Shown here: one piece after another, positions 18,001 to 24,000 of the stretch
Numbering within the stretch: the first letter of the stretch is position 1
Layout of the letters: each line of letters opens with the position of its first letter
NCBI GenBank assembly: GCA_964514595.1
Contig: CAZEQZ010000001.1
Coordinates: 182,511-246,510 of the forward strand
DNA from: an uncultured Candidatus Saccharibacteria bacterium
GTDB taxonomy: Bacteria > Patescibacteriota > Dojkabacteria > SC72
Direction of reading: 5' to 3'
DNA: 64,000 bases
Position numbers: made by a program

Positions 18001-21000
18001 CTAAATCCAGATATATTAGCAAGGGTGAAAAATATTACGGAAAGGAGTAGTAAAAGAAGGAAGACATTTTTCTCTTTGTTAGTTTTTAATTTTTCAATAA
18101 CTAAATATCTAAACCATAAGTATCCAGTAAGTATAGTCCCAATTATGAAATGAGTAGAAATCAATAACGGTGTTATTAGAAGAAGTTTCCATAGAGGGAG
18201 ATATCTCTCCTTAAGTATAAGTATGAATAGGTATAGAGCAAATGTTTGAGGAATGAAGAATACAAAATCATACCCTCCCATGACGAAGGTAAGGAGAGAA
18301 AGCAGAGTTCCTAATTGTGACCATAGTGTACTTCGGGTTGTTTTCTTAAATATCATATATATGGGGATACTTACAACCAATGGAAATATAATGTCTAGGA
18401 CATAGAATGCTTTAATGGGGTCTGTCCCCAGAAATGTTGTAAATGATCCGAAAATAATATGGTAGAAGGTAGTATATCCGTGTTGAAGGAATAGATTAGA
18501 ACACTGTCCAGGTAGTATACAGAGTAATCCGTTGTGAAAGATTTTGTTTGGAACTGAGAGATGTTGTAGGTAGTCTAGAGCTACTACAGAATTTAGTTGT
18601 CTAATAAATATGAATACAAAGAGAGCATATATTATTGCTGGAATTAATGCAGAAATAATTTCTTTAAGTAATTCCTCAGATTCATTACCCTCCTTATTAT
18701 CTCCAATTATGAAGAGCATAAACAGGAGGTTCCAAAGGATAAGGTTAAATATTATCCCAAAAGGAAGTATTTCATTTAAAGATAGTCCTGTTAAGTTGGA
18801 GATTAGTAATTGAAGTACGAATTGAACAGGATAGTAAAGAAAAAGGAATGCAGATGTAACACCGTATAGTCTAGACTTAAATATTACTTTGGAAAGAAGG
18901 TGAGGTAATGTAAAGATTGTGAATATGAGATACCCAATAAATATGTAATTATCTCCAAAGGAGTGTAAGCCTCCTGTGAATATGGAAAATATCAAATATG
19001 CTAATATCCCAATATTTATTATTATCCCTATTACATCAAACATACCTACTCCTTACAATTAATTATCATTTTAATTTCATACTTAATTTGTAGATCATAC
19101 TCTCTGCTTAATACTACTGTTTGTTTGTTGTCTGTTATCTCGTAATCTAGTAATTCATCATATATCTCCACCCTACACCCTTTATCTTCAAAGTATATGT
19201 ATCCATCTTCTAATTTGTATTCAGTCTTGTTTGAGTAGTCCAGTTGTATATTGTATTTAAGATTTTTCTCATACAGATACGCTGTTTCAGCTATTATTTC
19301 AATATCTATTTCTTTAGAATTAATTGGTCTTAGTAGTATTTGCCTACTACTATTCTCTCCATTTTCAATATACTCTAGATATGTGTTTGTTCTAACTATT
19401 GAGTTTTCTAAATTGGAATTTTTTTGTATCTTACTATTAACACTAAATGGATTTTCTGAAAAATCAGCATTATTGTTAATATGATCATTTCTAGATGCTA
19501 TCTCAATATATTCTGTATTGGGTAGTTGTATTATTACAGATTGTCTTTCATTGATAATTTGAAAGTTTTTAGATTGTGTATATCCTAAGTAGTATGTAAC
19601 AGATAGGTATATACCTATTAATACAATTATTATGGTTAGTAGTTTAAGATAGAAGGTTTTCATATATACAATATATATGTATTTGGGATAAAAAAAAAGA
19701 TAACGTATGTTATCTTAGGGAAAAATTAGTATTTAGTTAGGGGTTTGGGTGATCTTATTATTTGTAAACTCTCAGAGAGAGGAAGATCACCCGGGTGCGG
19801 TGGAACAAAGGGGGTTACTTACAACTGTAAACGTGCACTGCTTCGCCTCGAACGAATCCATCCAGGTTAGTCAACGGAAGATCTCCGTTATAGGTATGGA
19901 ATTCATCCAGCTTTGCAAATGGGATAGCTTCGCCTTCTTGGTAAAGCCACCAATCGCATCCTCCCTGTACTTTTTTGAAGCCAATTGTGAAGTGCCCATC
20001 AGGGACCACATTGACAGTACAGGTGAGAAGATCTGAACAACTAAACTCAGATAGATAGGTGGGCTTCCTCACGGACGGTCCTGCATTCCCTCCAACGTTT
20101 CCTGCGGAAACTTCGGTAGACGGTTGATTATCTGTTACGATAATATCCGTTACTTTGTTTGCAGGAGCTGCGCTCGCGGTACTGTTGTTGTTATCTACAA
20201 CAGTAATGCTTTTCAGGGCAGAAAGTCGCCCGAAAAAGTAGACCACGACCATCAGCAAAACTAGTGCAAGGACTTGCCACCAGCTCAGTGTTTTTCCGCT
20301 ACCAACAGTTGAACGTACTTCTTCGTTTCTAGCCATTTCAATCTCCTTTTTTACTATTATTGATTAATATGTTTAAAACATTTTAAAACAAAAATTGTAA
20401 GGAACCACCCCTACACCGCATTAAACTTCTAATATCTATATGTATTAGAAACATAATGCGATGTATGAGTATCCCTTAAAAGGAGATATACCCTATTATA
20501 TTCACCGCTACTTGTATATAGATGGATTAAATAAATAATCACATAATACAAGTATATTTTAAAGAACAAGTCTCATAAAAGAGACATTAAAAAGATATAT
20601 AAATATCTCTATGAATGCGTCTTTTATATTAATATTGGAAAATTTGTATTTTAAAGAGCAGATTCTTTATTTACAATCCTACTACATTATACCATTTCGA
20701 AGTGTATAGTTCAATACTATGGGCTGGGGAGATAAATCTCCCCTACCCAATTCAAGTTAAGCTATCTTGCTATTTAAGAACTTAGAAACACCTATAAATC
20801 CTAAACCTGAAACATATGCTGAAACAGCTACTATATTAAACAATACAGCATCTGCTATACCAGTATCCTCAGGAATATGAGGACCGTATGGTGTATAACC
20901 ACCATCAGCTAATGCAGGAGATCTAAAGATGTTCAATATTCCGAAAGCAAGAATAGTTAACAAGAAGATTTTGTTTATCTTCTTCATGATATTTGTAATG

Positions 21001-24000
21001 AGCAATTTAATTACGAATACATTATACCCTATAGTCCGGATTTATTCAATATGTATGTTTTTGGGGAAATCTTTATCTAGTTAACTCTACTTAGATACCT
21101 AAATACCCTTATTGGAGAATTATACATCCTACATGTATATAGTATTAAATCTGCCTCATAATCTGTTATTTGTGTACTATCCTCTGCTTTGTATACTTCA
21201 TACTCGTAGCTCCTTTGATTCCATATTAGCTGTACCCTATCCCCTACTTTTAGTTTCGGGAGATTGTAGAAGGAGCTTTTTGTTCTAAAATCATTAGTCC
21301 AGTATACATATCCAAATCTGTGCGCAGCCATAATTATTGGTAAATCATTCTCCTCAGGAGTACCAAAATTTGGAACTATCCATATCCCCCCCTCTAATCC
21401 AACTTTTGGATCAGTATTCTGATTAATCTCCGAATCAATTCCGATATTTGCAATTTTTATCATACTCTCCTGTGGCAAGGAAGGATCTATATCAGGAAGT
21501 CTAGGTACTATTGGTTCAACCTGTTCCTCAGGTACATACTCTTCTAAAATTGTTACTTGCTCTTGTATTGTTACTAACTCTGTCTCTGTAGCTCCTTTAT
21601 CTACCGAATACCATATTTGAGGATAGAAGGTTATGGCTACTACCGAAAAGGCAAAGAATATTAGCAAAATACCAACGGCCATATAGATTCTGGAAATTGT
21701 TTTAAGAAAATTTTCTTTCTTCATCAATTCTTACTCCTTAAATACATCTCTAATATCATACCACTATTAATCATCTCCTGTGCATACTCTCTACCAATAT
21801 ATCTATAATGCCAGCTCTCATAACTATATCCTGTTACACTCTCATACCCTTTAGGAAAACTAATTACAAAACCATACCTCCATGCATTTTCACTTAACCA
21901 CCTACTAGCCTGTGTATATGCAAACTGTTGACCTAAACCATCTGTTATTTCACTACTACTAAAATCTATAGCAGTACCTAACTGATGTTGACTATGACCA
22001 GGTCTAGCAGATATCTTATCTGCTTCATCAGGATTATTTCCATTTACCCTTAACCAGTAGTTATATGTACTGACCTGGGTATCATATGATCTATACCCTG
22101 ACCTAATACTTAGATCAAGCCCATTATTTTTAGCTTCATTTACTAATTCTGTTAGATCATTAATTAATATATTTCTTAACAAATGATTCCCAGGATTCCT
22201 AATACCAGATAGTGATGCACTTACTAAGTCGGAAGGGGCGTATGTATTAGGTAGCTGGTATTCTTTATTTACCAATACCAATAAATCATCTCCACTCCTA
22301 GTTACACCCTTAATATCACTTGGATATGTCCACCATCCAGTAGATACATATACAGGAAGAGTTTGTGTGGTTCTAATAGATGGATTAGATTCTTCAAGGA
22401 GTACATTTTCTTGTACATAAATATTCTTAGTTAAAAGATCTTTCTTTTCTACACTACTCTCTTGGTATGCAATAGTATATGCATTTATTGATAGTATAAA
22501 GCTGATTATTGTACTAAATATCTTTCCCATTTTCTGTATTTTACAATATATAGTACTAATAGAATAGTAATATTAATACAAGCTACTCTTACCATTATCT
22601 AGGTCAGGAAGTATAAATATACATGTATTAAAATATGATATGGCATTAAGTAATGAAGATATACAAATTATTAAGGATATTGTTAATACTGATATACAGA
22701 AGAATATTGGCATATTGAGTAAGTATATGTTAGGAAAGCCGTATGTATTAAGTATTACATATGATCAATTACAGAAAGAGATTGTTAAGATGAAGGAGTA
22801 TGTACCTGATATCCCAATAGTTAGGTTAAAGTAACGCCACTGTAGCTACCCTATCCCCTCCATTAATATTCATAACTTTAACTCCTGAAGTTTGTCTGCC
22901 CTGTGTAGGTACTGTTTCTATTGTAGATCTTATTACTTTTGATTTCTCAGATATAACTACAATCTCATCATCCTCTTTGGTAAGTATTCTTGCAGTAGCA
23001 ATATTACCTGTCTTACTTGTTACTCTAAACGTAAATATACCTGTACCTCCCCTCTTCTGTACACCGTACTCTTTAAGTAAGGACATCTTCCCATATCCAA
23101 ACTCGGAAAGTGTAAGTAATTTCTGATCATCATAATTAACTATACCCATACCCACTACGCAATCACTCTTACTCTTAAATTTAATACCTGTCACTCCCCT
23201 AGTACTTCTGCCCATTGGTCTAACATCTGTTTCCTTAAATCTAATAGATTTCCCTTCCTTAGTAACTATGATTACATCATCCTCTCCTGTTGTAGGCTTA
23301 ACCCAGCTTAACTGATCTCCATCTTCTAGTTTGATCGCTATTAATCCATTAGCCCTAATATTGGCAAATTCTTTCAGCTCTGTTTTCTTAACAACTCCAT
23401 TGTCCGTAACCATTAAGAAATACTTAAATGCTTTTCCTCCCTCTTCTAGAATCTCTTTCGATATCTCACCCTTAGGATTTCTAGTTAAAACAGATGTGAC
23501 TATTTCTTCTGGCTCTAACTGTACGAGATTAACTAAAGGCAACCCTTTGGCAGTTCTTCCTAACTCTGGTATTTCAAATATTCTTAAATTAAATACCTTA
23601 CCCCTGTTTGTGAATAGAAGTAATTCATCATGTGTATTACACAAGAATGCATGCTCTATAAAGTCTCCCTCTTTTGTATCTCCACCTGATACACCCTTAC
23701 CTCCTCTGTGTTGAGCTTTGTATGTATTAGGAGGAAGTCTTTTAATATACCCTGAGTGAGTTATTGTAACTAAGGTATCCTCCGAAGCAACCATATCCTC
23801 CTCTGATATCTCATTTACCTTTCCTTTAATAACCTTGGTTCTTCTGTCATCTCCATATTTCTGCTTTATCTCTTCTAGATCACTATTAACAACCTCAAGT
23901 ATCCTGTCTTGATTTTCTAGTATCTCGTTATATTCTTTAATCCTACTCTTTATATCCTTATATTCATTCTGTATCTTCATCCTCTCAAGTGCAGCCAGTC

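Follow-up and report, generated by a model that had tools for sequence, protein, structure and literature searches.

A divergent sortase paired with a small sorting-signal protein in Dojkabacteria and related bacteria

Gene arrangement and the small protein

The genes described here lie on the minus strand of a 64,000-nt stretch of contig CAZEQZ010000001.1 (positions 182,511 to 246,510; assembly GCA_964514595.1), referred to below as the window and numbered from its first base. The contig is from an uncultured Candidatus Saccharibacteria bacterium that GTDB places in the Dojkabacteria. Three closely packed, co-directional genes are located 3' of gyrB and gyrA. They encode, in the order of reading, a VanY-type M15B peptidoglycan carboxypeptidase with a Pfam VanY match (268 aa; 21724..22530, minus strand), a divergent sortase (215 aa from its ATG; 21077..21724, minus strand), and a small pre-protein that is the presumed substrate of the sortase (76 aa plus stop; 20757..20987, minus strand). 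All three open reading frames (ORFs) had been proposed in a first-pass annotation made from the sequence alone, and all three are present.

The start codons change some of the details. Read from a TTG, the small ORF spans 20757..21005 and encodes 82 aa, the length given in the first-pass annotation; read from a conserved ATG at 20987, it encodes 76 aa (MKKINK...). Most of the 25 database homologues of the small protein begin at MKK(I)NK, and relatives do not have the TTG in frame. Therefore, we take the ATG as the start. The sortase gene is upstream of the small gene, not downstream as had been written, and the 71-nt gap given then is the distance to the TTG (89 nt to the ATG). The sortase gene has a TTG as well, 3 bases upstream of its ATG (216 aa, end 21727). 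The overlap with the VanY gene described before is present; its size of 4 nt applies to the sortase TTG, and with the ATG it is 1 nt.

The small protein begins with a putative Sec signal peptide (residues 1-27, MKKINKIFLLTILAFGILNIFRSPALA, ending SPALA; 20907..20987, minus strand), of which the Lys-rich n-region, the hydrophobic core, and the conserved A-x-A site are legible in the family alignment. The predicted signal-peptidase site, A-L-A|D, fits the -3/-1 rule, and the Ala at -1 (A27) is invariant or nearly so. Cleavage there and after Thr42 would leave a mature, transferred peptide of 15 residues, D28-T42 (DGGYTPYGPHIPEDT; 20862..20906, minus strand), one residue fewer than the estimate of about 16 made earlier. 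The peptide runs into the sorting motif H37-I-P-E-D-T-G43 (20859..20879, minus strand; family consensus H-x-P-x-[D/P]-T-G). As in signals of the LPXTG type, the motif is directly followed by a hydrophobic transmembrane segment (residues 44-68, with conserved D46, F50, and G61; 20784..20858, minus strand) and a basic cytoplasmic tail, KFLNSKIA (20760..20783, minus strand; family consensus K-x-L-K-x-K).

The motif itself is neither the L-P-x-T-G pentapeptide nor a class variant of it. LPXTG, NPQTN, LPNTA, and LAXTG all have Pro or Ala two residues before Thr (P3), whereas the invariant Pro of the small protein is three residues before Thr (P4). The motif is therefore one residue longer than LPXTG. 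This much was recognized in the first-pass annotation, which gave the motif as IPEDTG, but the conserved element extends further upstream and reads P-Y-x-P-H-x-P-x-[D/P]-T-G-[FLI]-x-D, with a near-invariant His. Among 221 family sequences selected by the motif, in which Pro and Thr are fixed by the selection, His is present in 212 and Gly follows Thr in 181; the residue after Thr is otherwise Ala, Ser, Phe, or Asp. The C-terminal helix is conserved in sequence too, with Asp at +4, Phe at +8, Gly at +19, and Lys at +27 relative to Thr. Without such a selection, an alignment of 44 diverse members shows P39, T42, G43, and G61 to be invariant and A27, P33, and H37 nearly so. Two stretches of the protein are suggested as test peptides for the sortase, GPHIPEDTGIAD and YGPHIPEDTGIADA.

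A database search retrieves 25 close homologues of the small protein (E = 1e-42 to 1e-18). A profile of diverse members gives 81 matches among 5.8 billion proteins, and a second profile gives 112 matches among 1.84 billion representatives at 50% identity; 110 of the 112 are 43-116 aa long, and the other two are long proteins matched over spurious short internal stretches. The matches from the 5.8 billion proteins are of the same size range. No model in Pfam or NCBIfam, libraries that presumably contain models of LPXTG anchors, matches the small protein at E up to 0.1, and no homologue has a model in these libraries or an informative name, so that the profile search proposed in the first-pass annotation yields no family model. 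The dN/dS ratio of the small gene is 0.07-0.3 in a codon alignment, for pairs with unsaturated synonymous sites; against loci L011, L013, L014, and L016, the proportion of synonymous differences is 0.45-0.54 and that of nonsynonymous differences 0.06-0.07. The codon alignment thus indicates that the small gene is real and under purifying selection. Conservation of the ORF, on which the first-pass annotation had made its proposal depend, is borne out by the homologues, the profile matches, and these ratios.

The same plan recurs in every member: a putative signal peptide, a mature part of 13-20 aa, H-x-P-x-x-T-G, a transmembrane helix, and a Lys-rich tail. The sorting-signal architecture claimed for the window protein is thus a property of the whole family. 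In relatives, the mature part contains (xPY)n repeats in one to four copies, with P33, Y34, H37, P39, and T42 conserved, and at its predicted N-terminus, small residues and Gly form a conserved stretch, [ADS]-G-G. The transmembrane segment has conserved Phe, Ala, and Gly positions. Two kinds of variants have additional features in the extracellular segment. In L030 (5129-5428), L049 (6731-6985), and several database members, a Cys-x7-10-Cys loop encloses the PY segment just before His. In L032 (7718-8173), L050 (6629-7180), and L065 (8991-9533), a Pro/Thr-rich spacer of ~70 residues precedes the signal, the protein is ~140-180 aa long, and the motif is without Pro, H-A/V-V-V-D-T-G/A. The loop and the spacer suggest that the extracellular segment is itself functional.

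As judged from conserved signals on both sides, the small gene seems to be transcribed independently, from a strong predicted promoter. A promoter-like site, TTGAAT-17 nt-TATAAT, is located ~34 nt upstream of the ATG (21021..21049, minus strand). Such a match alone is not significant in AT-rich DNA. Across the family, TATAAT is found at about the same distance from the ATG in 72 of 73 loci, usually with TTGNNN 17 nt upstream, and the strict pattern TTGNNN-N16-18-TANAAT is present in 48 of the 73. Just after the stop codon, a GC-rich hairpin, GGGGAGA-TTTA-TCTCCCC (20726..20743, minus strand; read from the sequence), is a likely terminator; in relatives, this position is likewise occupied by a hairpin, with a different sequence and the pairing kept. 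An independent unit of this kind would fit a product needed in large amounts.

The sortase, its partner gene, and the carboxypeptidase

The sortase, read from its ATG, is identical to database protein P0026. It matches the Pfam Sortase family (PF04203) with 39.2 bits against a cutoff of 26.6 (E = 6.6e-10), and the motifs pointed out in the first-pass annotation correspond to H136 (AAHRFGY), C199 (LILYTC), and R207 (NSPxR), which are invariant in 21 relatives of 45-100% identity. In an AlphaFold2 model (mean predicted local distance difference test score 84.4), residues 3-42 form an N-terminal membrane helix, which a disordered linker joins to a beta-barrel catalytic domain. The model and a Foldseek search against the PDB agree with the eight-stranded beta-barrel fold of sortases; among the top 50 matches listed, sortases of classes A, C, D, and E are found about equally (E 2e-8 to 3e-7, TM-score ~0.5).

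The sortase fits no curated class from A to F and is a member of an unclassified clade of the Candidate Phyla Radiation (CPR, or Patescibacteria), a group in which sortases are enriched. The names borne by homologues of the sortase place the organism in Candidatus Dojkabacteria (WS6), a CPR lineage. The sortase scores below every NCBIfam class cutoff (SrtD, 18.9 against 140; class D, 17.8 against 165; class C, 14.0 against 160; class E, 13.7 against 160), has no match to the class A, B, and F models, and in a profile search of the PDB matches 4d70 alone, at E = 0.006, with no class assignment. It probably belongs to fam000526, a sortase family that is near-ubiquitous in Microgenomates (PMC6744442). 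In the N-terminal helix of the sortase, Y15 and G19 are invariant in 21 sequences. Together with the invariant residues in the helix of the small protein (F50 and G61), this suggests specific intramembrane recognition between the two helices.

To ask how regularly the two genes occur together, we use 80 loci, one genome per species, retrieved with sortase peptide patterns alone. A profile of the small family detects a small ORF downstream of the sortase, on the same strand, in 72 of the 80, in agreement with the conserved synteny that the first-pass annotation proposed to look for. Of the eight loci without it, four are on truncated contigs, which break off inside the next gene or no more than 250 nt from the sortase. 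Two further exceptions, L051 (125-811) and L067 (3833-4504), belong to a distinct sortase sub-clade (ILASHRFGY) and have no small ORF downstream. The L051 sortase is a paralogue, since it is from the same genome bin as L083, which has a paired copy; some genomes thus carry two sortases of this family.

The pair is kept down to a sortase identity of 37-45%, and in differing surroundings. In L087, Rho and a LysM-M23 protein are encoded in the flank, and a 131-aa gene stands between the sortase and the small ORF that follows it. In L089, the order is sortase, small ORF, and genes for glycosyltransferases of families 2 and 4 (GT2, GT4). In L090 and L091 (Chisholmbacteria), SecA and TsaD/TsaE are encoded upstream, and the small ORF directly follows the sortase. 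The pair is also kept where the VanY gene sits between its two members. The pair therefore survives in otherwise different flanks, indicating more than inherited synteny among close relatives.

The product of the third gene matches Pfam VanY (PF02557) with E = 1.4e-38 and 132.1 bits against a cutoff of 25. Like the M15B carboxypeptidases VanY and LdcB, it has a VanY domain with full zinc-binding and catalytic motifs, all of which are intact in the translation (SGYRS, H-x6-D in HQLGTAID, and E-x-x-H in ESWH), and it is extracytoplasmic, with an N-terminal signal or anchor sequence. It falls below all NCBIfam cutoffs (LdcB, 118.1 against 275; VanXY, 97 against 250; VanY-B/G, 93.8 against 400; VanY and VanXY types overall, 74-97 bits against 250-500). 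Therefore, no D,D- or L,D-specificity and no resistance role can be assigned to it.

A VanY homologue adjoins the sortase in 69 of 87 sources. Its position varies between two gene orders: 51 loci have VanY-sortase-small, and 14 have sortase-VanY-small. The three genes are contiguous in 64 of the 80 sortase-retrieved loci. In the window, the overlap of the VanY stop with the sortase start suggests translational coupling, which argues for a functional link within Dojkabacteria. An apparent sortase-VanY fusion in L079 is an artefact of a masked run of N and was rejected.

Proposed wall loading and its alternatives

We propose that the sortase and the small protein are a dedicated pair that loads a short peptide onto the peptidoglycan, a reading to which we give a probability of roughly 0.55. 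In this pathway, a strong promoter of its own would drive synthesis of the 76-aa pre-protein, Sec would export it, and signal peptidase I would remove residues 1-27. The C-terminal helix and the Lys-rich tail would hold the remainder in the membrane, where the adjacent membrane-anchored sortase would recognize P-H-x-P-x-x-T-G, cleave after Thr42, and form a thioester on Cys199. The Pro/Tyr/His-rich peptide of 15 residues would then be passed to an amine of the cell wall, the likeliest acceptor being the side chain at position 3 in lipid II or in nascent peptidoglycan. The outcome would be a wall that bears many copies of a short peptide in place of a folded surface protein. In Dojkabacteria, the co-located extracytoplasmic VanY-type carboxypeptidase would probably condition the stem peptides involved. 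Polymerization into a pilus was rejected, as the mature part has no conserved Lys, and the pilus-like subunit considered in the first-pass annotation is accordingly unlikely.

Several points weigh against this proposal. We infer both cleavages, the acceptor, expression, the role of VanY, and the function of the peptide from the sequence and by analogy with characterized sortases. The motif is not LPXTG, and the cleavage register with Pro at P4 is assumed from that analogy. The tail of the window protein is weakly basic, with two Lys. The term dedicated is based on 64 kb of a genome of ~760 kb plus syntenic loci, and a whole-protein profile would miss a signal of ~40 residues at the end of a large protein. 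A paper on another CPR lineage (PMC5220378) states that sortase-motif surface proteins occur in most CPR bacteria. In addition, no VanY gene is found within 5-8 kb of the pair in L032, L042, L049, L050, L087, L089, L090, and L091, and the two VanY gene orders may result from a single rearrangement. Since Chisholmbacteria and other lineages have the pair with no VanY gene close by, VanY is not an obligatory part of the module.

One alternative for the sortase is that it is a general, housekeeping enzyme with larger substrates encoded elsewhere, the small protein being its best-conserved adjacent substrate and no minimal dedicated module existing. The near-ubiquity of fam000526 in Microgenomates, the sortase-motif surface proteins reported in CPR genomes, and the fact that 8% of the genome is visible are all consistent with this, as are the ~140-180-aa variants in L032, L050, and L065, whose Pro/Thr-rich spacers indicate that the signal can carry more cargo. 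We searched the window (64 kb, ~8% of the genome) and about 0.9 Mb of related loci for further substrates. Among ~1010 ORFs of the window and 86 related loci, no ORF of at least 100 aa combines a generic sorting-signal-like C-terminus with an N-terminal signal, and no ORF longer than 100 aa in the same DNA has P-x-x-T-[GFASN] followed by a helix and a basic tail; the candidates from both scans are false positives. Other C-termini of the IPxxTG type, whose absence the first-pass annotation would have counted against a sortase system of this kind, are likewise not found in the window and these loci. The loci sample the same region of many genomes and the window is 8% of one, so the evidence for exclusivity is weak. 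The credible profile matches in 1.84 billion proteins are nevertheless all small, and the helix of the substrate is conserved, which is unusual for generic sorting signals; with these points, the housekeeping role seems rather unlikely. For VanY, the corresponding alternative is that it is an ordinary enzyme of peptidoglycan maturation that shares an envelope neighbourhood with the pair in Dojkabacteria and has no mechanistic link to transfer. The eight loci without VanY near the pair point this way, and the sortase-VanY-small loci share related motif variants, so that one rearrangement possibly accounts for them. No report that a sortase depends on a carboxypeptidase or on trimming of stem peptides was found in the literature searched, and trimming of lipid II stem peptides for the sortase, the role given to VanY in the first-pass annotation, is possible and unsupported. 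Contiguity of the three genes in 64 of 80 loci in two different orders, and the overlap of stop and start in the window with the coupling that it suggests, argue for a link. The unlinked enzyme has a chance only a little short of even.

Two other alternatives concern the fate of the small protein. The sortase may cleave between Thr and Gly without anchoring the product to the wall, so that the 15-residue peptide is freed by hydrolysis, as a diffusible signal or for interaction with a host, or is joined to an N-terminal amine in a cyclic product or a head-to-tail polymer. Sortases hydrolyse their substrates or ligate them to N-terminal amines in vitro, the mature part has the size of a peptide, its predicted N-terminus is the [ADS]-G-G stretch, and the (xPY)n repeats of variable number resemble a structural repeat. 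However, P-Y-x-P-H-x-P-x-x-T is kept where the sortases are ~40% identical, whereas rapid divergence is usual for signalling peptides; the mature part is predicted to start with Asp, Ser, or Ala rather than Gly; no conserved Lys is available for isopeptide polymerization; and we know of no natural cyclic or head-to-tail product made by a sortase. Release or cyclization is thus improbable. Still less credence is due to a function in the membrane. The uncleaved protein would then be a hairpin of two helices and a pseudo-substrate that partners with or regulates the sortase, or else the active product would be the C-terminal peptide that stays in the membrane after cleavage. The C-terminal helix of the small protein, with the four conserved positions given above, differs from ordinary stop-transfer segments, the sortase helix has its own invariant Y15 and G19, and in Streptococcus gordonii, C-peptides are sensed by a two-component system (PMC11326707). 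Against the membrane form are the conservation of the predicted A-x-A site for signal peptidase, the fact that conservation in the protein is highest in its extracellular part, and the finding that no histidine kinase or regulator is conserved beside the pair.

The proposal of wall loading can be taken a step further. A dedicated sortase may modify the peptidoglycan stoichiometrically with a short, highly expressed Pro/Tyr/His-rich peptide in Dojkabacteria and related CPR bacteria, giving a 'peptidylated' wall. We put this forward tentatively, as the odds run somewhat against it. If true, it would be a new modification of the cell wall and not a display of proteins, and it may be a core feature of the envelope of ultra-small episymbionts, with a bearing, for example, on wall architecture, attachment of a surface glycan, or contact with host cells.

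Known systems and the surrounding DNA

Compared with LPXTG proteins and sortase A, the pair shares a motif ending in T-G, a hydrophobic helix, a basic tail, and an enzyme anchored by an N-terminal helix, and the small protein has a putative N-terminal signal peptide as well. It differs in the motif H-x-P-x-x-T-G with its extra residue between Pro and Thr, in a helix conserved in sequence, and in having essentially no cargo domain. Class E sortases and the LAXTG chaplins of Streptomyces likewise combine a variant motif, small hydrophobic or repetitive surface polypeptides, and a lineage-specific class. The sorted chaplins are much longer than the window peptide and have amyloid domains, and the class E hidden Markov model gives the window sortase 13.7 bits against its cutoff of 160. 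A functional analogy can be drawn with Braun's lipoprotein Lpp, a very small and presumably abundant polypeptide of the envelope that a dedicated transpeptidase links covalently, by its C-terminus, to the stem peptides of peptidoglycan. For Lpp, the linking enzymes are L,D-transpeptidases that use a C-terminal Lys, and the protein has a lipid anchor in the outer membrane; the window system would instead yield a processed peptide without a membrane anchor, and its enzyme has the sortase fold and is a Cys transpeptidase.

In its logic, the pair comes closest to sortase B and IsdC (NPQTN), where SrtB cleaves the sorting signal of a single protein (PMC3297441). In both cases, the motif is not LPXTG, the sortase gene adjoins that of its single (here presumed) target, and the catalytic triad and the fold are alike. 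Whereas IsdC binds haem and is a folded protein of ~200 aa, the part transferred here would be 13-20 residues; the Pro at P4, the near-invariant His at P6, the conserved helix, and the unclassified enzyme are further differences.

In the literature searched, we find no description of so short a dedicated sortase substrate or of any substrate of a CPR sortase, and CPR sortases are mentioned solely as a feature of gene content. The statement in the first-pass annotation that no sortase system with a substrate this short is known agrees with this. The module supplies CPR sortases with a conserved candidate substrate and a defined motif, P-H-x-P-x-x-T-G, so that their action becomes testable on a synthetic peptide with recombinant enzyme. 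Should the peptide indeed be loaded onto peptidoglycan, the sortase would serve an unusual purpose, the chemical decoration of a wall with a peptide of 13-20 residues, and would do so in organisms that are attached to other cells and whose envelope is essentially uncharacterized. A sortase with a six-residue motif and Pro at P4 could also serve as an orthogonal ligation tool.

The DNA around the small gene has further conserved features. Its 5' leader (20988-21020, minus strand; ~30-35 nt) lacks a Shine-Dalgarno-like run of purines, and the leader sequence is conserved within clades. In a large clade with H-x-P-[L/I/V]-P-T-G motifs, in which Pro directly precedes Thr, the leader reads GCATTTAAATTAACTAGCCCTTTAAAT ATG. 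A structured leader was considered and dropped, as single-sequence folds are weak and inconsistent. An element, CCCATAGT(A/G), abuts the -35 hexamer of many small-gene promoters (most of the loci L007-L086) and that of the promoter of a candidate RNA described below. The exact element occurs twice in the window, at 20712-20722 (minus strand) and, inside a gene, at 37087-37097.

Directly 3' of the small gene, an ORF-free block of ~130 nt (20556-20685, minus strand) may encode a small RNA. It is preceded by a promoter-like site, CCCATAGTATTGAAC-17-TATAAT (20722-20686, minus strand), and is conserved at the nucleotide level in 26 loci of the window's clade, where it lies 20-100 nt (mostly 75-98) after the small ORF. 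Within the candidate RNA, a long hairpin (~60 nt) shows compensatory changes, CG to GC in four sequences and UA to AU in four. The candidate ends in a terminator-like hairpin and has no match in Rfam. Further downstream, in the spacer before a 173-aa gene, is an AU-rich hairpin of ~85 nt (20393-20481, minus strand) with a terminator-like site at 20415-20396; its sole, weak Rfam matches are models of microRNA precursors, that is, of a generic long hairpin.

The downstream genes of 173, 205, and 633 aa were rejected as parts of the module, as they are conserved solely in the window's clade. The 633-aa product (17142-19043, minus strand), encoded between the sortase module and a GT4-GT2 gene, is a polytopic membrane protein conserved in 25 related loci; seven homologues have no match in Pfam, and a profile of the seven has none in the PDB. 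That it glycosylates the peptide is pure speculation. In 39 of 84 loci, a gene for a GT2 glycosyltransferase of ~255 aa starts less than 200 nt after the small ORF (L027-L086; for example, L031 6972-7730), and in L089 it begins at the base right after the small ORF (2336-3097). The single GT2 relative in the window's clade is half of a 648-aa GT4-GT2 protein encoded 3.6 kb downstream (15199-17145). These neighbours hint at a link between the peptide and envelope glycan synthesis.

Many of the species-representative records L007-L086, which carry this Dojkabacteria-type locus, are titled 'uncultured Candidatus Saccharibacteria bacterium' and two 'uncultured Pseudomonadales bacterium', labels that are probably unreliable. 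Elsewhere in the window, three plus-strand regions (28722-33412, 2999-5551, and 11062-12426) contain type IV pilus assembly genes, for two T2SSE ATPases and a T2SSF platform protein, together with genes for a protein with a TrwB-like coupling-protein domain and a tyrosine recombinase or integrase.

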